64,000 bases of DNA. Source: Alphaproteobacteria bacterium (GTDB taxonomy: Bacteria; Pseudomonadota; Alphaproteobacteria; CAAHEQ01; UBA3637). Numbering within the stretch: the stretch's first letter is position 1; each line of letters begins with the position of its first letter. Shown in pieces: positions 7,600 through 49,389 of the stretch. The position numbers were made by a program, and so were the translations under genes. The notes below the pieces were generated by a model. It made no database searches and had not been told where the DNA came from. It saw only the letters and a program-made list of their open reading frames with translations. The stretch spans positions 5,141 through 69,140 of the forward strand of contig JAFTEW010000056.1 of assembly GCA_017453485.1 (NCBI GenBank), in the 5' to 3' direction.

Positions 7600-10500
7600 T
7601 TAATCTTCCCTAGTAAATGTGACAGTCAAATTATAACTAGGTCCTCCATGGTTAGTATACATATAGTAGCAAAATGTACCACCCGGAGCCAACACTCCCG
7701 CATCTTTATTTGGGAGATAAAGTATCTGTGCACTTTTTTTATGACTACGATGAGCTAGTTCAACTTTTGTTCCACCCAAAGAACTACTTTCACATTGTCC
7801 TGATACAATTTGCCCATTTAAGCGGTATCCAGTATGCCCATAAACGGCAGATCCTGAAATTCTGATTCGATAATTTGAGTTCGTATTATTCGTTGTATGA
7901 CAAAAAGCTTTGCTCCAATCATTGTGAGACGTCCCACTTGCATAGCAGGTTTGTAATGTAGCAGGACCTCGACAAATTCCATTAATAAATTCATTTGGAG
8001 ATTCGCAACATTTTTTAGTGTTACCGGCTGTATAGATACGATTACTGGCACAACACTTATTATCTGCCCAACCTTGACCACTGTTACAACAATGTCCGCT
8101 GACATTAATTTTACCGCTGGCACAGCAGAGTCCGCCACCGACATTAACATTATTGCCCGTACAGCAAACCTTTGTCCCATCCGATGCTTGACTCAAATCC
8201 TTTGCACAGCATTTATTGGTCGATCCATCTTTATAAACACGAGATGTCAGACAACAAGAAGAACTTGTATTAGAAGCCGTTCCGATAACGGTTTGATTAT
8301 CGCCGCAACAACTCCAATAATCCGTAGTTCCGGTCGCCCCCTCTTTCCATTTTTTCCGGAACTTAGTTGCCGTGGAGTCATCTCCTTTCAACAATTTACC
8401 ATCAGCACAACATCCTGCAAACGTTTGTGTCTTGTTGTTTTGTTTTCTTTCATTAAACAACTTGGTTGCTCCGCTGGAGCAGCATCCGACCGTATTGCTC
8501 AGTGTCCAATTACTTGTATTACATGTTTGACACTCACCGACTTTACTTGTATCAACGACAACCGCGCCATTCGGATAGTTTTGTCCGTTACATTTACCGC
8601 AGGCACCAACAGCACCGGTGTGTCCCTGCCAATTCCATGTCGTCGTATTGCAACTTTGACAAGTTGGTGTTGTCTGATCTCCGCGCACAGGACTCCCGTT
8701 CACACACTTACCGCATTGACCGATCGTTGTTCCATCCGTTTTATTTGTTGTTGATGTTGTCTTGACATTCGTACACAGGTTCGTTGTTGTTGCCACCGTT
8801 GAACACGTATTGTTTGTCTCGCTGGTCGTTGTCTTATCGGCAGAACATGTGCTGGCCGGTCCGCTTTCTCCGGCGGCTAAACACTTTGTTTCCGTCTTAC
8901 TCTTACAACAATTACCATCCAGGTATTTATAAGTCACACTCTTGTTCGTCGCCGTTCCATCACAAACACCCTTACAGTCAAATTTTCCACTGGCACAACA
9001 CTTTGTGCCATTGGCATATACCGTCCCGGAGCAACATTTCTTCGTCCCATTCTCGGTATAAACCTTCGTCGTATCACAGCAAGTTGTTCCAACCACTTGA
9101 CCGTTCGCACAGCACTTGCCGCCAACATAACTCTGGCCGCTCGCACAACAATGTCCGTTTGACAAAACATTATCACAACATTTCGTCACACCACCTTCGG
9201 TATATGTCCGATTTGCAGGGCAACACCCTTCTTCATCTTTGCAGGAGGCATCAGCACTACAACACGTCCGGGTTGTTCCATCACAATTCGTCACGGTTTT
9301 ATTTGTTGCCGTTCCGTTACAGACACCGGCACAGTCTTTCTTGGCTGAACCACCGCAAACACCCGCACAGTCCTTAACCTGTCCCGGACAACACCCTTCT
9401 GCCGTCTTCGCTATGCCACAACCGCATCCGTCATCCTTGGCCGTTCCGTTACACACACCGGCGCAATCTTTCGTTGCTGTCCCGCCGCAAACACCCGCAC
9501 AGTCCTTAACCTGTCCCGGACAACACCCTTCTGCCGTCTTCGCTATGCCACAACCGCATCCCTCATCCTTGGCCGTTCCGTTACACACACCGGCGCAGTC
9601 TTTCGTTGCTGTCCCGCCGCAAACACCCGCACAGTCCTTAACCTGTCCCGGGCAGCACCCTTCCGCTGTCTTCGCTATGCCACAACCGCATCCGTCATCC
9701 GTCTTATTACTTCCGCAAACGCCGTCACATCCCTTCTGACCCTTATTGACAATCTTATATCCCGTCGCTGCACTACACGTAATACACTCCTCATCCGTCC
9801 AATCTCCCATCAATACATTCCCGTTCGTGCATCGTCCGCATTCCTCTATCGTTGAACCGCTCTCATATGTCTTCCCGTTATATTCGCACTTCTTCGGCGG
9901 ACATAATCCAACCCCTCCCTTACCGTCACAGCACCGATCCTGACTCGGATCCGCTCCACTGACTACCTTTACTCCTTTCTCCTTCGGCTTACATGTCCCG
10001 TTCGCCTGTCTCTCCTCACATACATCACAATGGCATTTCCCATAATCACGAACACAGACACCCGTCTCATTATCACAACACAACGGATGACACTCCGAAT
10101 CATAAGAACATAACGCACCTACACTGTCATGGAACACAAACGATAGCACATTATGATACTCTCCATCCAACGCCGAACTGATCATCCCTCCTTCACGTAT
10201 CACATCTCCGTCCGGAATACATTCCACATCATACTTCCTCTCCCCATAGTTCCAACTATACAACTCCCCATTAATCGCCGTATAGGTCGGATCCGGAAAC
10301 TCCGTCTTCTTCACTATCTCGCACACACGATACGGGATATCATACACTTCCAAAGCTTGAATATATTCTTCCCCGTTCAAACCGCTGTTTGATACAACCG
10401 CATTCCCATACGGACTCGGCCGATCATTCGGATAGTCATTAAAGGCCTCTACCTTAAACCGGCCATATATCTTATCCTCCGCACTGTCCGGATGAAACTC

Positions 10501-10980: not shown

Positions 10981-11056
10981 GACCCTATCGTCTAGAGGCC
11001 TAGGACATCGCCCTTTCACGGCGGTAACGGCGGTTCGAATCCGCCTAGGGTCGCCA
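10981..11056 (+). tRNA. tRNA-Glu (anticodon TTC)
   Basis: Cloverleaf folds. Acceptor GACCCTA/TAGGGTC. Anticodon loop CTTTCAC. Near-identical to E. coli tRNA-Glu through TCGTCTAGAGGCC.AGGAC.CCGCCCTTTCACGGCGGTAAC. Ends in CCA. Confidence 0.9.
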
Positions 11057-43993: not shown

Positions 43994-44070
43994 GGGCCTG
44001 TAGCTCAGTTGGTTAGAGCTGTCCGCTCATAACGGATAGGTCGTGGGTTCAAGTCCTACCGGGCCCACCA
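43994..44070 (+). tRNA. tRNA-Met, elongator type (anticodon CAT). tRNA-Ile (lysidine) cannot be excluded.
   Basis: Cloverleaf with anticodon loop CTCATAA. G1–C72 pair, so not an initiator. Ends in CCA. Confidence 0.8.
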
Positions 44071-44078
44071 AGATTAAA

Positions 44079-44105
44079 AGCCACGCCTTTCGGGGTGGCT
44101 TTTTT
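44079..44105 (+). terminator. Intrinsic terminator after tRNA-Met
   Basis: AGCCACGCC tttc GGGGTGGCT followed by a T5 run. Confidence 0.6.
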
Positions 44106-44378
44106 CATATTTCGCAAGGCATTCGGCAGGTTCGATTATGAAGGGACAGAAAACTTCCGTCAATTCCGACATCAATTCATTCTGCGCTACCGCTTGAATT
44201 CATTGTGTCTCATTGCTTTGCGCATAAAAAATGTTCACTGGACATTTTTTATTTACGCAGTATCGAACTTTTGCATACTTTCCATTATAAAACAAGCACT
44301 TATCCACAGTTCAAGTCCTGTCAGGGCGTCAAATAAAATATTTTTAAATCCTAAACTTTTCCCGTTACATTATATTAA

Positions 44379-46931
44379 CTATTCCCAATTTGAAACAAAC
44401 ATTGAACGTAGATTTTCAATTTTATCTGGCATCTTAGTCCTTCTTGATGTCAATCCCAAAAAGGTTGCAGCACGAGAAATACCAACATACAAGTATTTTT
44501 CAAAGATTCGTGGTTTAAGATCAGCCAATTCATCAACATCCATAAAGAAAGCAGCCTCAAACTCTAGTCCTTTAATATAGTCAATGCAAAATACCCGTAC
44601 GCTATGACCATTTCCTATAATGCGACCATTTTCACAAGCGTCAACCGCAATATTATTATGTTTTAATCTTTTATTCAGTTCATCAGCTAGCTTCTTAACC
44701 TTATCTTCGGTATTAACCAAAATTGCGATAGATGGAAGGGTTTCAATTTTTCGTTCTATCTCAATTATTCTTGTAGCCAACCAATCTGCTTGCTTTTCCA
44801 TGCTATCAAGCGAATATCCTGCCACAGGGTCAAGACGGTCATTATCTATGTATTTAGGTTGCTCGTATGAATCCACCCTTGCACCAATGATTTTTGTGGA
44901 AAGTTCAAAAAGTTGTTTACTCTGACGATAAGGGATTTTAATTTCCTCTATTTGTACCTGTTCTAGTGCCCATTTGAAGTCATCAACAGAAGAAACACCA
45001 ATTTCAGTTAATCGTTGGTTTATATCACCAGCCCCAAAGAAACACTTACTATTCTTCTGTAATAAATTGTCCATTATTGCAATTTGAACAGCCGAAAAAT
45101 CTGTAATTTCATCAACAAAAATCTGACGTCTCATTAAGGCTTCATCTAATTTATCCATTTTAAATGCTTTGTAGGCTTTAAAATAGGCTAAAATAACAAT
45201 ATCAAGTTCTGGGTAAGATATAGCTCTTGGATTAAAAGTATCTATATAATAATCCTTATTTAATCTTCTAAAAGATCTATAGTTTGTTTTTAGTGATGAT
45301 AGGTACCTTGATTTTGGATTTCTAAAATTTCTCAACAACTTTAACTCTTCAACTAAAGCTCCTATCTCATTCTTTTTATTATCTGGAATAATTTTATCAA
45401 ATTTTATAGTATTCCCGACAATGAAATTAAAACTTTTTTCTGAAATTTTTTTCTTTTTATAAAAGGTATAAGCAAGGTTCTGAACTGGTTCAATAAGATA
45501 TTTTTGTATAATTTCTTGTGGACTCAATGCAAAATAATTTTTTTCTTCTTCGTCGTCATCATCTCCAATATCTTCTGTATTACTAACGATTTTGTATTTG
45601 GAATCAATTTCATTTCTTAAATTAAAGAGAGACTCTTTGATAGTTTCTTTTTCCCATTTTAATCCATCTGTTAAGGCTTTCCCAACTATATTTTTTAATT
45701 GAGCTTGAATTTTTTGTAGTTTCTCAGAAACTTTTTCAAATATTTTTTCTAAATCATTGCATATCGAGACAATACGTGTATCTTGTGTAATACTCAAATA
45801 ACCTAACATATCCTTTATCTCAGGATCTTTCAGGTTCATAATATCCTTATGGGCAGTTGCTAACTTTGACAAAAACTCCTTATTTTGAAATTCAAAGAAA
45901 TTAATAAAAATATTTTTCTGATTTTCAGATGATTGAACTTTTATATAATTTTCATCGCTTAATTGGAATCCAGAACGTAAGGAAGTCTCTAAGAGCATTA
46001 GGTTATCACGTGCGATATTCCTGATAAAATCCTTCCATACAAATACATTCTCATCTGGAGCCGCAATATTTTCCCTACTAAAAGCTTCTTTTAAATAAAC
46101 CTTTAGTAATTCCGTAGGGGTAAACATATACCACGATTTATCCCCAGGTAATCTAGAATTTTCGTCATTTGAATCAAGATTTAGCCCCAATTTCTTTATT
46201 AAGGTTGTTGTTTTACCCGTACCTGGTGGCCCTAAAACAATAATTTTTATATCTGGGTCCTGCCTTTGTATTTTATCCTGAAATTTATCTAGGATTGGAT
46301 TATCTCTTAAACCCATACTTGAAATAACATCTTGCTTAATTTTGCCAGTAGTACTTTCATTAAATTCCTCTGAAAATGAAAATACATCAGAATCAACAGA
46401 TTGGAGTAGAGTGCGTAATGAAGAATGAGATGAAGCTGTTTCTTTAAAATACATTTTTGCTGATGCATCCCATTCTCCAGCAACTCTACGAGTATCAAAA
46501 GAATTTTTTTGTAAAATTTCATATTCTTCTGTACGCCGATCAAGTTCCACTTCATAAAAATCGCCTATATCCTGCGAAACTAACGATGCTTTTGGGACAT
46601 GGTCGTTTAATATTCCATTTTCAACATTTTCAATAGTAAAATTCAGAGAGGGCAATTCTCCCCCTCTTGTAATATAATACGTTTCTATCCTACCTGTATT
46701 ACAATTTTTTACTGTCACGCTTGCGTAAAAGGGGTGGCTTCGTGCCATTAACAACTGTTGCTCTTTGTCTCTTAATCTTTTATTGTTTGCTAGAATTTGT
46801 ATATCAGTAGGTCTATTTGCATAAACATCTGAAGAAAGTGTGGACATATTTTTTAGCTCAAGCGTTGCTAAATTTGAGACATGATCAGCAGATTTTAAGG
46901 CCTGATTTGCGATTTCCTTTTCATTTTGCAT
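44379..46931 (-). CDS. 850-aa Upf1/RecD-like superfamily-1 helicase / P-loop NTPase with a ~230-aa N-terminal domain of unknown function. Candidate anti-phage defense protein on an AT-rich islet.
   Basis: Walker A IIVLGPPGTGKTT. DExx-like FVDEITDF. C-terminal AAA_12/UvrD_C-like block VRVFCIDYIKGLEFEAAFFMDVDE...YVGISRAATFLGL. Markedly AT-richer than its flanks. Immediately 3' of a tRNA gene. Confidence 0.6.
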   Translation of the reverse strand: MQNEKEIANQALKSADHVSNLATLELKNMSTLSSDVYANRPTDIQILANNKRLRDKEQQLLMARSHPFYASVTVKNCNTGRIETYYITRGGELPSLNFTIENVENGILNDHVPKASLVSQDIGDFYEVELDRRTEEYEILQKNSFDTRRVAGEWDASAKMYFKETASSHSSLRTLLQSVDSDVFSFSEEFNESTTGKIKQDVISSMGLRDNPILDKFQDKIQRQDPDIKIIVLGPPGTGKTTTLIKKLGLNLDSNDENSRLPGDKSWYMFTPTELLKVYLKEAFSRENIAAPDENVFVWKDFIRNIARDNLMLLETSLRSGFQLSDENYIKVQSSENQKNIFINFFEFQNKEFLSKLATAHKDIMNLKDPEIKDMLGYLSITQDTRIVSICNDLEKIFEKVSEKLQKIQAQLKNIVGKALTDGLKWEKETIKESLFNLRNEIDSKYKIVSNTEDIGDDDDEEEKNYFALSPQEIIQKYLIEPVQNLAYTFYKKKKISEKSFNFIVGNTIKFDKIIPDNKKNEIGALVEELKLLRNFRNPKSRYLSSLKTNYRSFRRLNKDYYIDTFNPRAISYPELDIVILAYFKAYKAFKMDKLDEALMRRQIFVDEITDFSAVQIAIMDNLLQKNSKCFFGAGDINQRLTEIGVSSVDDFKWALEQVQIEEIKIPYRQSKQLFELSTKIIGARVDSYEQPKYIDNDRLDPVAGYSLDSMEKQADWLATRIIEIERKIETLPSIAILVNTEDKVKKLADELNKRLKHNNIAVDACENGRIIGNGHSVRVFCIDYIKGLEFEAAFFMDVDELADLKPRIFEKYLYVGISRAATFLGLTSRRTKMPDKIENLRSMFVSNWE

Positions 46932-47138
46932 AGGCAGACAAGCTCCATCTTAAGAAGATTATACGGTGATTATATCATACTATGCTGGGTAAGACAAGAA
47001 AAAAATAGACCCTATAACTTTTTACAAAAGTTTTTCCCCTGGGGAAAAAAGTTAAAACAGGTTTTGGATTTGTAAGACCAATTCTTTTAACTCGGCTGAA
47101 TGGGTTGCCCGATATCCGCTAACTACCTGCCATCAAAA

Positions 47139-47729: not shown

Positions 47730-48443
47730 CTATTCAAATTTCATATCCTGAATACGCTTTTCGGCAGCCTTAAAATATGTCGGATCCAATTCAATTCCGA
47801 TAAATCGCCGTTTGTTTTTCAATGCTGCCACACCGGTTGATCCGACCCCCATAAACATATCCAAAACAACATCATCGGGATTGCTGGCAATTTTAATAAT
47901 ATGCTCTAACACAGCCAACGGTTTTTGGGTCGGATGCTTGGGATTTTGCAACCGTTCTTTACCGGCACAGATGGGGGCCTCAATAAAGTTATGCATTTCC
48001 GTTTGTTTCCCGAAATGCCAAGTATGCCCCTTATTCCAAAGACAGACAATCAATTCACAACTGTTTAAAAACGAGGCCTTACGAATACACGGTATCGGGT
48101 TGGTTTTATGCCATACCATAAACTGAAACGTATCAAATTCAGCATTGAAGGCTTCATGAAACTTTCCGATTAAATTATAGCTGCAAAAGATGAAGATATT
48201 ACCTTTCGGGGTTAAAATGCGTTTAAACTCAGACACCAAATCGGCCGGGTTTAAAACTTTTTTATCCCAATCTGCCACATCATTATTAACACGTCCCCGC
48301 CACCCAAATGTCATGTTGCCGGTGCTGTAATTGGCCAGGTTATACGGTGGATCACACAGGATTAAATCCACGGAATGATCTGGTATTTTTTTCATTTTTT
48401 CAAAGCAATCACCTTGCCATAATTGAATTTTTTTAACCGTCAT
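47730..48443 (-). CDS. Beta-class DNA methyltransferase (N6-adenine or N4-cytosine). Appears orphan.
   Basis: Motif IV LILCDPPYN precedes motif I FMGVGSTG at the C-terminus (beta-class permutation). 237 aa. No neighbouring restriction-endonuclease-like ORF. Confidence 0.75.
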   Translation of the reverse strand: MTVKKIQLWQGDCFEKMKKIPDHSVDLILCDPPYNLANYSTGNMTFGWRGRVNNDVADWDKKVLNPADLVSEFKRILTPKGNIFIFCSYNLIGKFHEAFNAEFDTFQFMVWHKTNPIPCIRKASFLNSCELIVCLWNKGHTWHFGKQTEMHNFIEAPICAGKERLQNPKHPTQKPLAVLEHIIKIASNPDDVVLDMFMGVGSTGVAALKNKRRFIGIELDPTYFKAAEKRIQDMKFE

Positions 48444-49389
48444 CCCGATTCATTTCCTTTATTTTTTCGGCAATTTCAAAGGCGGGATTAAGCGTTCCTT
48501 TCGGGGCTATTCCTTCTTGCCCCAACGGAACGGCATATCCTTCCCGATAGAGCGTTTGATGAAATCGTTTATGTTTCGGACTCATCATTTGATCCGGTGC
48601 AAATATATGAACCGGCACACCGGTTGCACAACATTCCGAACACATAGACATTGAATCTCCCGTCACTACAATTTCATCGGCACAGGCCAACAACCCGAAA
48701 TAGGGATTTTCCGTTTTATCCCCAAACCGATAGAAAAAGAACGGCTGTGGCAACGTGTTTGCCAATGTTTGCACGACTTCATTCGGTGTTCGCCGGGATG
48801 TCGTCACTAAAATTGACGCCGGCTTCAACGCCTGAACACCAGCCACTAAATCATGAGCCATTTCAATCGTAAAGGGATTGTTTTTGGTTGCCCCCCCCAC
48901 AATCAGCGACAGGCGCCTGTGCGGATAATCCCGAAAGACGGGTTCCCATTTTTGCCTTTCCTGAATCAAGCGTGCCCGCGATACCCGATGGGGCGTTCCC
49001 GTCACGACCAGTACATTTTTACTTTTTCCCTGATAACCATCATGCGCCGGCAAAACAACCAAAGATGCTTCCTTAAAACCGGCACATCCCGGGTTCATCA
49101 ACTGAACAATGCGTGTCCGATTACCGGATTGTTTCCGAATATACCGCGCCACGGGGAAAGAACGCCGACCGGCGCTTAACACAACATCCGGCCAGGGACC
49201 CTTTATTTTATTTCGAGATTCTGCATCAAGGCCAATTAAACTTTTTCCCCGAACCAGGTTCGGCAATTTAATCCACCTGTCATAACGAATATCAATCCGT
49301 TCAAAGGGTTCACCCAATGCTTCGGCGATACCCAATAACTGATTAACATTTCCGGCCCGATCATCGGCTAATATCCAAACATTGGTCAT
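48433..49389 (-). CDS. ELM1/DUF1022-family protein (mitochondrial-fission ELM1-like putative glycosyltransferase)
   Basis: Length and scattered motifs (NVWILADDRAGN..., ...VVTGDSMSMCSEC) resemble the alphaproteobacterial ELM1-like family. Tentative. Confidence 0.45.
   Translation of the reverse strand: MTNVWILADDRAGNVNQLLGIAEALGEPFERIDIRYDRWIKLPNLVRGKSLIGLDAESRNKIKGPWPDVVLSAGRRSFPVARYIRKQSGNRTRIVQLMNPGCAGFKEASLVVLPAHDGYQGKSKNVLVVTGTPHRVSRARLIQERQKWEPVFRDYPHRRLSLIVGGATKNNPFTIEMAHDLVAGVQALKPASILVTTSRRTPNEVVQTLANTLPQPFFFYRFGDKTENPYFGLLACADEIVVTGDSMSMCSECCATGVPVHIFAPDQMMSPKHKRFHQTLYREGYAVPLGQEGIAPKGTLNPAFEIAEKIKEMNRDDG

Follow-up and report, generated by a model that had tools for sequence, protein, structure and literature searches.

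A HelD-like SF1 ATPase in a strain-variable islet beside an alphaproteobacterial tRNA-Met gene, with a candidate role in anti-phage defence

The stretch of alphaproteobacterial DNA analysed here (the window, 64,000 nucleotides) carries, in a strain-variable slot beside a tRNA-Met gene, an intact gene of 850 amino acids (44379..46931, minus strand) for an SF1 ATPase of UvrD type. By structural modelling, the protein is a member of an uncharacterised family with the architecture of HelD, a motor that removes RNA polymerase from DNA. With about even confidence, we read this apparently separately transcribed gene as most likely an anti-phage or anti-mobile-element factor that would act on transcription complexes, because of its HelD-like build, the context of defence operons and mobile slots in which the family is found, and the variability of its slot between strains. 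Defence itself is a reasonable candidate role on genomic association only, and binding to RNA polymerase, the direction of the effect and defence activity are what we infer for the protein by analogy with HelD.

The open reading frame starts with ATG and its product matches exactly an NCBI entry, MBQ7413649.1, labelled 'hypothetical protein'. The gene is convergent with tRNA-Met (CAT; 43994..44070, plus strand), which was called by an Rfam scan among others and borders the islet, and its stop codon lies 308 bp from the 3' end of the tRNA; the Rfam scan detected nothing else in the islet. The initial annotation had described an AT-rich islet adjacent to the tRNA, and quantification bears this out: the GC content of the gene is 0.322, against 0.450 +/- 0.018 in other segments of 2553 bp (z = -7.1), its GC3 is 0.235, against 0.42-0.48 in the adjacent genes, and its tetranucleotide L1 distance is 0.51, while the values elsewhere are 0.21 +/- 0.04 with a maximum of 0.39, so that uniform composition is excluded. 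Upstream of the gene, 38 nt from the ATG, a promoter-like site (TTGTCT, 17 nt with TG, TATAAT; 46969..46997, minus strand) has 10 of 12 matches and is the best minus-strand promoter match in the region; since the total of such sites in the region is not above shuffle expectation, it is suggestive only of separate transcription from a predicted own promoter. A ribosome-binding site, GGAG, can be read 11 nt before the ATG (46943..46946, minus strand). At the other end, a GC-rich hairpin between A and T runs (44076..44106, with a plus-strand terminator call at 44084-44097) serves as the terminator of the tRNA and could, if also used on the minus strand, terminate the convergent helicase gene. No partner gene for the helicase was found within the window, its neighbours being tRNA-Met and an upstream GNAT gene, whose terminator-like hairpin (47031..47049, minus strand) forms the boundary of the variable slot on the host side.

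The slot is a strain-variable hotspot, because near-identical flanks enclose alternative genes. Indeed, in metagenome contigs of the same species, whose flanks are 99.3-99.96% identical, it is occupied by the window gene, by a ResIII/DEAD helicase or by a third gene that is unrelated, a replacement polymorphism of the slot; contig L104 departs from the window exactly at 47031 and contig L105 at 47137. A truncated copy, 90% identical, is carried by an unrelated ParB/RepB element of 33% GC, and the nearest homologues have 28-31% GC within flanks of 32-43% GC. Of the marks of a genomic island at a tRNA gene, the islet shows anomalous composition, tRNA adjacency and strain polymorphism only; the horizontal acquisition that had been proposed is upheld by the composition, the replacement of the gene in its slot and the copy in another element: judged from these sequence comparisons, the gene is horizontally acquired. 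No integrase was found at the islet, and the direct or inverted repeats flanking the island were AT-rich and at chance level with the exception of a 20-nt fragment resembling the 3' end of a tRNA, AGTTCAAGTCCTGTCAGGGC (44308..44327, plus strand), which was found by pattern match and is a possible relic attachment site. This fragment has one mismatch to a degenerate tRNA-Met 3'-end pattern, for which 0.02 matches are expected by chance; being on the tRNA side of the gene, it is wrongly placed to delimit it, and it is absent from every related locus compared.

These data also bear on the reading of the gene as a housekeeping repair or transcription helicase of the host alphaproteobacterium, which is extremely improbable. 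In Gram-positive bacteria HelD itself is a transcription factor encoded on the chromosome, which would suit such a role, but the composition of the gene, its replacement by other genes between 99%-identical flanks, its absence from relatives that have the adjacent ELM1-like and methyltransferase genes, and the sporadic phyletic distribution of the family all argue against it, and conservation in synteny as a housekeeping helicase is not what is seen. The methyltransferase, a small N6/N4 enzyme encoded two genes from the helicase, was assessed as a possible partner but discarded, as its composition is host-like and it is kept with the ELM1-like gene in helicase-less relatives. A 269-aa open reading frame that precedes the truncated copy (contig L012) was considered as an alternative N-terminal domain, and was rejected because it shows no similarity.

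The domain structure was derived from an AF2 model of the 850-aa protein (pLDDT 83, pTM 0.82), together with the conserved columns of the family; all coordinates of protein regions are on the minus strand. The two motifs first recognised by eye, GPPGTGKTT and GLEF...YVGISRAAT, are present on invariant family columns, as are motifs Q, I, Ia, II, III, IV, V and VI as a whole (invariant columns Q218, G234-T243, W267-T273, D607-S613, G635-R640, Y668-R669, K787-E792 and Y815-A822). The first part of the RecA-like domain 1A (aa 216-334; 45930..46286), delimited by invariant columns and the Pfam models AAA_19 and UvrD-helicase, contains Q218 of the Q motif, the Walker A GPPGTGKTT at 234-242, and W267 with MFTPT at 269-273 as motif Ia. 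The second part (aa 561-657; 44961..45251), also delimited by invariant columns, contains motif II (VDEITDFS, 606-613) and motif III (GDINQR, 635-640), and is the best-scoring stretch against HelD in the family profile search. The RecA-like domain 2A (aa 658-850 and the stop codon; 44379..44960), defined by Pfam, family columns and the model, is a continuous stretch of 193 aa with YRQS at 668-671, KGLEFE at 787-792 and YVGISRAAT at 815-823. Although the Walker A had been taken for one of Upf1/RecD type, Pfam (UvrD-helicase, 23.4 bits with a cut-off of 23), structure and profile instead place the ATPase with UvrD, Rep and PcrA (SF1A).

The accessory domains of these helicases are missing from the model. 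In particular, 2A has no 2B insertion, and the place of 1B is taken by an all-helical arm of 225 aa inserted in 1A (aa 335-560; 45252..45929; secondary structure of the model), a position that is that of the clamp arm in the HelD domain layout (PMC8655204). An insertion of about 300 aa between the Walker A and the DExx box had been noted; an insertion does exist, but the gap from K240 to D607 is of 367 aa, of which about 225 form the arm. Within the arm lies a disordered poly-acidic loop, DIGDDDDEEEKN (aa 452-467; 45531..45578; pLDDT <50), whose composition is conserved family-wide with the consensus DDxDDxDxxDEEE.

The N-terminal region, which had been described as devoid of recognised motifs, indeed matches no Pfam or NCBIfam model over aa 1-215, and Pfam Helicase_IV_N has no match to the protein. 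In the models, it starts with an antiparallel coiled-coil hairpin (aa 1-65, helices 2-33 and 44-65; 46737..46931), a candidate secondary-channel arm, whose tip loop carries the invariant N39, one of only six invariant columns of the N-domain. A beta-rich globular domain follows (aa 70-170; 46422..46724), resembling in the models and in Foldseek the Gre C-terminal domain and the HelD NG-domain, with the invariant G123, W154-D155 and S171 in or near it and the likewise invariant P67 nearby; aa ~56-152 align weakly to residues 78-175 of B. subtilis HelD in a profile alignment. A low-confidence linker (aa 171-215; 46287..46421; pLDDT <50 at 181-195 and 205-210), assigned from the model and conserved columns, ends in the conserved MGLRD.P. 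Among 1.84 billion representative proteins, the N-domain was found solely at the N-terminus of this family.

Structural comparison relates both the whole protein and its N-domain to RNA polymerase factors. With the full model, Foldseek retrieved HelD of B. subtilis (E 2e-21) and of M. smegmatis (1e-17), with UvrD, PcrA and Rep at around 1e-12, and the family profile searched against PDB sequences gave 5e-12 and 3e-11 for HelD and 1e-6 for UvrD; the E-values of HelD are thus lower than those of any DNA helicase by 5-9 orders of magnitude. Among the searches of PDB sequences, those with the single protein and the N-domain profile retrieved nothing, and HelD was reached solely with the profile of the full family. 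The protein has modest global TM-scores against HelD (0.44-0.48), and the NCBIfam HelR models NF041254 and NF041258 give E-values of 0.01-0.13 and 10-14 bits against cut-offs of 750-1100. When aa 1-212 were used as the query, Foldseek returned HelD (5e-6), Gfh1 (1.8e-4), GreA (3e-4), the HelD N-terminal domain (3-5e-3) and Rnk (1e-2), and all matches with E <0.1 were secondary-channel binders. GreA/GreB, Gfh1 and Rnk have in common with the N-terminal 170 aa a two-part fold, made of a coiled-coil hairpin and a small beta domain, but the N-domain of the window protein is fused to an ATPase, lacks acidic catalytic tip residues and has no sequence similarity to Gre factors.

The order of modules is common to the window protein, HelD of class I (B. 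subtilis YvgS; 6WVK, 6ZCA) and the HelD/HelR proteins of Actinobacteria: a Gre-like coiled-coil N-domain, a split 1A with an arm replacing 1B, and a 2A without 2B, in a UvrD-type core whose motif III is of GD(I/F)NQ type. Differences are also present. Identity to HelD is 12-16%, and the DWR[A/S]P Trp-cage motif, which is absolutely conserved in the HelD N-domain (PMC8655204), is missing at the aligned position, where HelD IYDWRAPISSLYY faces the family consensus LASYxxPxGRLASL and the window protein reads ILNDHVPKASLVS. The coiled-coil tip of the family has an invariant Asn, unlike known HelD tips; its arm is larger and holds the acidic loop, whereas in M. smegmatis HelD the acidic loop is in 2A; and it is found in mobile elements and defence operons of Alpha-, Beta- and Gammaproteobacteria, whereas HelD is a core gene of Gram-positives. 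In addition, the lineage-specific inserts of Gram-negative RNA polymerase are expected to hinder binding of HelD type (PMC8655204). The invariant W154-D155 stands about 40 residues downstream of the aligned Trp-cage position of HelD.

A nuclease fold in the N-terminal domain, which the initial annotation had raised along with a likeness to Nhi and to Hachiman or Gabija helicases, did not survive comparison: the structural matches of the domain are only to Gre-factor and HelD N-terminal domains, and Pfam, models and Foldseek detected no nuclease fold or motif in the confident model. Thus, it is very improbable that the protein is a single-gene nuclease-helicase (Nhi/Hna) or supplies the helicase of a system of Gabija or Hachiman type, as its large single-gene SF1 form in an acquired islet might suggest. 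Nhi combines a nuclease domain with a helicase of Upf1-like SF1B type, while the core of the window protein is UvrD-like. GajB of Gabija, like the family of the window protein, does have a UvrD-like SF1A core and is found in defence islands, but PADLOC run on the region gave only weak and partial GajB matches over motifs II-IV (the best HMM with E 9.6e-9 at aa 604-755, about 150 aa), GajB has neither the Gre-like N-domain nor the long helical arm, HelD matches far better, and no GajA of the OLD family or HamA lies beside the gene. None of PADLOC, NCBIfam and Pfam assigned the protein to a family, and PADLOC v2 contains no model for the family.

Rather more weight, in a reading that we nonetheless hold doubtful, is to be given to a DNA-acting helicase or translocase of UvrD/GajB type that would sense or process foreign DNA ends or replication intermediates, its Gre-like N-domain and arm being merely oligomerisation or partner-binding modules and RNA polymerase being uninvolved. 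The full SF1A motif set includes the DNA-contacting motifs Ia, III, IV and V, and the NERD+UvrD models of PADLOC, like those of GajB, match the family weakly; however, HelD retains the same SF1 motifs and yet does not act as a helicase (PMC8655204). E. coli helicase IV (HelD), a UvrD-family protein that like the window protein has an extra N-terminal domain, unwinds DNA, but it keeps a 1B-like domain (PMC8655204), which the window protein, compared here with its description, lacks. ArmD of ARMADA type II is UvrD-like and experimentally essential for defence (bioRxiv 10.1101/2025.09.15.676423), thus offering an analogue for a DNA-acting role. Like the family, it joins a UvrD-like ATPase to an extra N-domain, encoded after a RapA/BrxHII-like SNF2 helicase and a PglX-like methyltransferase, and distant relatives of the window protein hold the equivalent operon position. 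From published descriptors, by which alone ArmD (WP_000218177.1) was compared, it is reported as GajB-like (HHpred 6e-32) with a RelE-like N-domain, whereas Foldseek gave no RelE-like match for the window N-domain, and its Walker A and Walker B are 188 aa apart (K266, D454) rather than 367; none of ArmA, ArmB and ArmC is encoded within the window. Against a DNA-acting role, the protein has no 2B or UvrD-type 1B domain, the structural matches of its N-domain are exclusively RNA polymerase secondary-channel factors, and the lead of HelD over any DNA helicase is large.

The genomic distribution of the family associates it with defence. Homologues (n=1446; full-length relatives of about 900 aa) are annotated as "ATP-binding domain-containing protein", with one labelled 'DNA helicase IV' by JGI, and occur sporadically in Proteobacteria and some other phyla: a relative is present in 465 of 185,579 species genomes, and a match in 52 of 5426 E. 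coli genomes. At least half of 80 sampled loci lie inside methylation-based defence operons. Distant relatives of the window protein are encoded within BREX, type III R-M and DISARM/ARMADA-like operons: at least 13 BREX-1 loci have the gene as an insertion between BrxC and PglX, the type III loci are SNF2-DUF4391-X-Mod-Res operons with a BrxR-type regulator, and in the DISARM/ARMADA-like loci the gene accompanies that of a RapA-like SNF2 protein. Although their partner genes are unrelated, the copies from BREX loci share 83-85% identity with those from type III loci. The clade of the window protein is solo and of low GC; its members occur in prophages, on mobile elements and in defence neighbourhoods, where copies adjoin AbiEii or type I HsdR or occupy a prophage moron slot. 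Literature searches on DUF4391 and on links between HelD and defence found nothing relevant, and UvrD- or HelD-like genes go unmentioned in a large survey of BREX.

The same distribution could suggest that the gene serves mobile elements instead of the host, in transcription-replication or transfer conflicts on plasmids and prophages or in counter-defence, and that it entered defence operons for no other reason than that they are hotspots of insertion. On a Vibrio plasmid the solo gene indeed adjoins ParAB, and on a conjugative plasmid of Caulobacter it lies between those of the coupling protein and the MobQ relaxase; in addition, a conserved slot for the gene exists inside a phage-like structural module, and many E. 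coli strains (UPEC) retain the SNF2/type III operon after loss of the gene. We consider this quite unlikely, since no homologue was found in 50,697 phage genomes, placement in BrxR-controlled operons is co-oriented and translationally coupled, and the association with three methylation-based systems is repeated and independent. BFVD viral structures matched only generic UvrD/Rep helicases.

For the preferred role in defence through transcription complexes, a mechanism can be outlined by analogy with HelD. The coiled coil would dock in the secondary channel of a multisubunit RNA polymerase and the arm with its acidic loop would contact the clamp and main channel, while ATP turnover would dislodge the polymerase from nucleic acid. 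The protein might thus evict or block RNA polymerase on invading DNA or, as another option, remove polymerases that stand in the way of translocating restriction machines. Members of the solo clade would function without a dedicated partner. A functional analogue is RapA (Swi2/Snf2), an ATPase that recycles RNA polymerase, whose SNF2 relatives are the operon partners of the family in DISARM/ARMADA-like loci, but RapA is of superfamily SF2 and has no homology to the window protein beyond the P-loop. More tentatively, as a proposition that we regard as rather less than probable, the family may represent a fourth, proteobacterial HelD-like class recruited to immunity, which would strip or block transcription complexes on invading DNA via the secondary channel. 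Its target would be the RNA polymerase of the host or a multisubunit one of a phage, and it would act alone in solo clades and otherwise as a plug-in for BREX, SNF2/type III and DISARM/ARMADA systems, where it would pair with RapA-like SNF2 proteins.

HelD-type motors are chromosomal transcription and rifamycin-resistance factors of Gram-positives and myxobacteria, and had been considered a poor fit for Gram-negative polymerases. The present family differs from these in having spread via mobile elements of Proteobacteria, in residing in defence operons and in having been swapped nearly unchanged between systems, thus pointing to an unstudied link of the transcription machinery with anti-phage and anti-plasmid defence. 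The family provides a concrete and testable component for systems such as BREX, with natural E. coli operons that have or lack the gene as ready-made controls. If the proposal of a fourth class is true, removal of transcription complexes would be tied to methylation-based defences.

The gene at 44379-46931 on the minus strand opens with an ATG and encodes 850 aa. It is convergent with tRNA-Met(CAT) (43994-44070, plus strand), with 308 bp between the tRNA 3' end and the stop codon, and its product (MBQ7413649.1), from a metagenome-assembled "Alphaproteobacteria bacterium", is annotated as hypothetical. The initial annotation had described a low-GC SF1 helicase gene adjoining the tRNA; the reading frame, the tRNA and all the motifs are confirmed, each motif falling on invariant columns of the alignment of its family of ~900-aa relatives. 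The GC content is 0.322 versus 0.450 +/- 0.018 in all other 2553-bp windows (z = -7.1), GC3 is 0.235 versus 0.42-0.48 in the neighbouring EF-Tu, GNAT, methyltransferase and ELM1-like genes, and the tetranucleotide distance is 0.51, with a maximum of 0.39 elsewhere. The low-GC stretch extends from ~44200 to ~47100. A promoter-like site (TTGTCT-17-TG-TATAAT) lies 38 nt 5' of the ATG, GGAG is found 11 nt ahead of it, and a separate terminator hairpin (47049-47031) closes the upstream GNAT gene, so that the gene, from these signals, looks functional. Elsewhere in the window, positions 9001-10000 have a local GC of 0.53 and a GC skew of -0.40, ~1 kb 5' of tRNA-Glu (10981-11056).

The slot between the GNAT gene and tRNA-Met is a strain-variable hotspot, as seen from the alternative genes on same-species metagenome contigs retrieved via the adjacent GNAT protein. 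Two contigs (L102 and L103) carry the gene within flanks 99.8-99.96% identical to the window. A third, L104, follows the window at 99.3% identity until 47031, the foot of the GNAT terminator, and then holds a different gene (8691-9793) that encodes a ResIII/DEAD SF2 helicase in its first 342 aa; a fourth, L105, follows it at 99.7% identity until 47137 and then enters a third, unrelated gene on the opposite strand. The ResIII/DEAD gene is partial, as the contig ends within it, and has weak similarity to PADLOC PbeA. The horizontal acquisition initially proposed from the anomalous composition is confirmed, and strengthened by this polymorphism, and beside it the idea that the gene is a housekeeping helicase is scarcely credible. 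Farther relatives, in which neither GNAT nor the helicase stands at this locus, do have the ELM1-like gene and the small methyltransferase gene (90% identity or above). The latter encodes a 237-aa N6/N4 DNA methyltransferase (47730-48443) and overlaps the ELM1-like (Mito_fiss_Elm1) gene (48433-49389) by 11 nt. Many related contigs keep the pair (at least 90% identical) and differ in the genes downstream, and the methyltransferase looks like an orphan core-genome enzyme outside the islet.

Signs of mobility are also present beyond the locus. A truncated copy (L012 10001-11650, also in L013), which starts at aa 413, keeps the C-terminus and so lacks Walker A, has 90% protein identity to the window gene (90.3% over 1281 nt, ~99% over aa 591-830) and sits in an unrelated 33%-GC ParB/RepB element with a type III R-M system. 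That element also holds a coiled-coil protein alongside the R-M genes, a radical-SAM/peptidase U32 cluster and DUF3768. Every one of the closest full-length homologues (40-50% identity) is encoded at 28-31% GC within surroundings of 32-43% GC. Around the islet, neither an integrase nor convincing flanking repeats were found. A 20-nt fragment resembling the T-arm/acceptor end of a tRNA (44308-44327, AGTTCAAGTCCTGTCAGGGC), located 51 nt past the helicase stop codon and before tRNA-Met, is a possible relic attachment site; none of the related loci has it, and it is confined to the window locus.

Pfam and NCBIfam models give only marginal UvrD-type matches, aa 1-215 match no sequence model, and in the PADLOC check for a defence system the sole matches were to GajB, over ~150 aa of its length (E 1e-8). 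With 43 homologues as input, AlphaFold2 gave a confident model (pLDDT 83, pTM 0.82). It begins with a helical hairpin (aa 2-33 and 44-65), followed by a beta-rich domain (aa 70-170) and a disordered linker. RecA-like domain 1A is split by an all-helical insertion (aa 335-560) containing a poly-acidic disordered loop (aa 452-467), whose composition is kept across the family (consensus DDxDDxDxxDEEE), while domain 2A is compact, without a 2B insertion. In Foldseek searches of the PDB with the full model, B. subtilis HelD was the top match (E 2e-21), ahead of M. smegmatis HelD (1e-17 to 1e-14) and of AddA, UvrD, PcrA and Rep, which came at ~1e-12. The family profile against PDB sequences scored HelD at 5e-12 and 3e-11 versus 1e-6 for UvrD, in an alignment to HelD that includes part of both N-domains. 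Modelled separately (pLDDT 80), the N-domain (aa 1-212) matched, at E < 0.1, HelD, Gfh1, GreA, the isolated HelD N-terminal domain, Rnk and a GreA/GreB homologue, all of them RNA polymerase secondary-channel factors. What had been left as a domain of no recognised identity is now a Gre/HelD-type module by Foldseek, predicted to dock on RNA polymerase. The structural matches include no nuclease or RelE/ParE fold; the resemblance to nuclease-helicase systems, suggested earlier from the architecture of large single-gene SF1 helicase fusions, was mistaken, and a nuclease-helicase of the Nhi kind is very improbable.

A search of 1.84 billion representative proteins with the N-domain profile found 683, with the domain N-terminal in every case and complete proteins of ~890-900 aa, so that the domain is specific to this family. 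Only six of its columns are invariant; one of these, N39, is located in the coiled-coil tip loop. As described in PMC8655204, HelD proteins are defined by a secondary-channel arm, by the lack of 2B together with a clamp arm in the place of 1B, and by a Trp-cage motif, DWR[A/S]P, whose conservation is absolute. The window protein has both arms and no 2B. The position aligned with DWR[A/S]P, however, reads LASYxxP in the family and NDHVP in the window protein, with an invariant W154-D155 pair farther along the family N-domain. As two of the three features are present and the motif is missing, the protein is predicted to be HelD-like in architecture and to fall outside HelD classes I-III, class I being its nearest structural relative.

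Homologues of ~900 aa, with ~33% identity over the full length, are found in Shewanella, Aeromonas, Enterobacter, Citrobacter, Marinobacter, Sinorhizobium, Chlorobium and many MAGs, annotated solely as "ATP-binding domain-containing protein". When one genome per species was scanned by pattern, relatives were located in 465 of 185,579 species, including Alpha-, Beta- and Gammaproteobacteria, Acidobacteriota, Binatia and Gemmatimonas. Among 5426 complete E. coli genomes, 52 have a match, eight of them full length; the other 44 are partial, covering <80% of the gene (19% in the four listed). The family is present on ten plasmids and was found in none of the sequenced phages searched.

Clustering of 80 neighbourhoods, annotated by Pfam and PADLOC, gave four recurrent settings. 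In the first (~20-25 loci), the family member X lies in a BrxR(WYL)-SNF2-DUF4391-X-type III Mod-Res operon with overlapping start and stop codons and a gene order that varies among loci. In the second (at least 13 loci), it stands within BREX type 1 between BrxC and PglX. The third (five loci) is DISARM/ARMADA-like, with a DpdE/DrmD/BrxHII-like SNF2, a DrmMI/PglX-like methylase, an SMC-like ATPase, X and HNH, joined in two of the five by a DruE/YprA-like helicase; the ATPase can also be described as SMC/LmuB-like. The SNF2 of this setting (L101 602-3379; L052, L094, L073, L075) has RapA as its best PDB relative (1e-24; next best 3e-11), so that RapA-like and HelD-like proteins are encoded side by side with a methylase, an ATPase and an HNH protein. 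The BREX copies (L028, L051, L055, L074) have 83-85% protein identity to copies of the first setting (L001) despite every partner gene being different; the HelD-like gene therefore moves between defence systems as a cassette, without co-divergence with one partner set. In UPEC, the SNF2-DUF4391-Mod-Res operon is kept and the HelD-like gene is a ~0.5-kb remnant. In E. coli UPEC 26-1 (L107, NZ_CP016497.1 2996832-3017344), the BrxR-SNF2-DUF4391-Mod-Res operon adjoins tRNA-Leu and a decayed integrase, and the ~0.5-kb remnant has a 41-aa ORF; ABU 83972 and clone D strains are alike. E. coli 0H26 (L106, NZ_CP081782.1 1239273-1265975) has the full operon with the HelD-like gene, a type III Mod split by IS30 and then a TrlF-family AAA-like ATPase.

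The fourth setting is the window protein's own clade (L011, L007, L022, L023, L009 and L024, 41-50% identity), whose members are all solo and mostly from metagenomes, including human-gut and ruminant-forestomach samples. One adjoins AbiEii, one adjoins type I HsdR, and one is in an element with resolvase, ParB and HsdR. Three (L007, L022, L023) share one position in a phage-like structural module, with head-side genes on one side and the tube gene on the other; the module may be part of a prophage or of a gene-transfer-agent-like element. These three loci (~4.9-17.7 kb) come from uncultured Alphaproteobacteria/Azospirillum-like metagenome genomes, one of them from a Hadza gut sample, with the order portal, S49 protease, NUDIX, the HelD-like gene, tube and tape measure. 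Together with the ResIII helicase in the slot of a sister strain, these settings are the usual signature of accessory anti-mobile-element cargo, an association and not a proof. A function serving the mobile element itself, for which the phage-like module might speak, is improbable beside the defence-operon settings.

Collectively, what is seen is an ATPase, intact and complete in its SF1A motifs, a Gre/HelD-type N-domain, no 2B, an arm at the 1B position bearing the acidic loop, mobility and association with defence operons. By analogy with HelD, we give an about even chance to a motor acting on RNA polymerase: the coiled coil would enter the secondary channel, the arm and acidic loop would act on the clamp or main channel, and ATP hydrolysis would drive polymerase release from nucleic acid. 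In defence, transcription complexes on invading DNA could be shut down or evicted; alternatively, polymerase roadblocks could be cleared from the path of Res, SNF2 or BREX machinery as it translocates. The acidic loop is reminiscent of a primary-channel loop in mycobacterial HelD that mimics nucleic acid, as reportedly described by Kouba et al. in 2020. An RNA polymerase-centred function would agree with the pairing with a RapA-like SNF2, RapA being the polymerase-recycling ATPase of Proteobacteria. Points against this reading are the absent DWR motif, the modest fold scores and the inserts of the Gram-negative polymerase, which were expected to hinder HelD binding (PMC8655204).

A DNA-acting UvrD/GajB-like sensor or effector, to which the UvrD-type and GajB matches point, is a good deal less probable, HelD being ahead of UvrD in both structure and profile comparisons. 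Among validated defence systems, ARMADA type II has the closest functional analogue, ArmD, which is UvrD-like with an extra N-domain and essential for defence, and which is reported to be GajB-like, its N-domain resembling RelE (bioRxiv 10.1101/2025.09.15.676423). Compared by published descriptions, ArmD has a much shorter Walker A-to-Walker B spacing and is treated as an analogue, not as the same family. This family, DUF4391 operons and a HelD-like defence component go unmentioned both in PADLOC v2 and in the literature searched, which spanned part of the journals and included a 2026 survey of BREX diversity. A candidate defence gene is a reasonable reading, by association. The UPEC operons with a gene remnant represent natural deletion controls, and the HelD-like motor predicted here stands in an unexpected phyletic and functional context.
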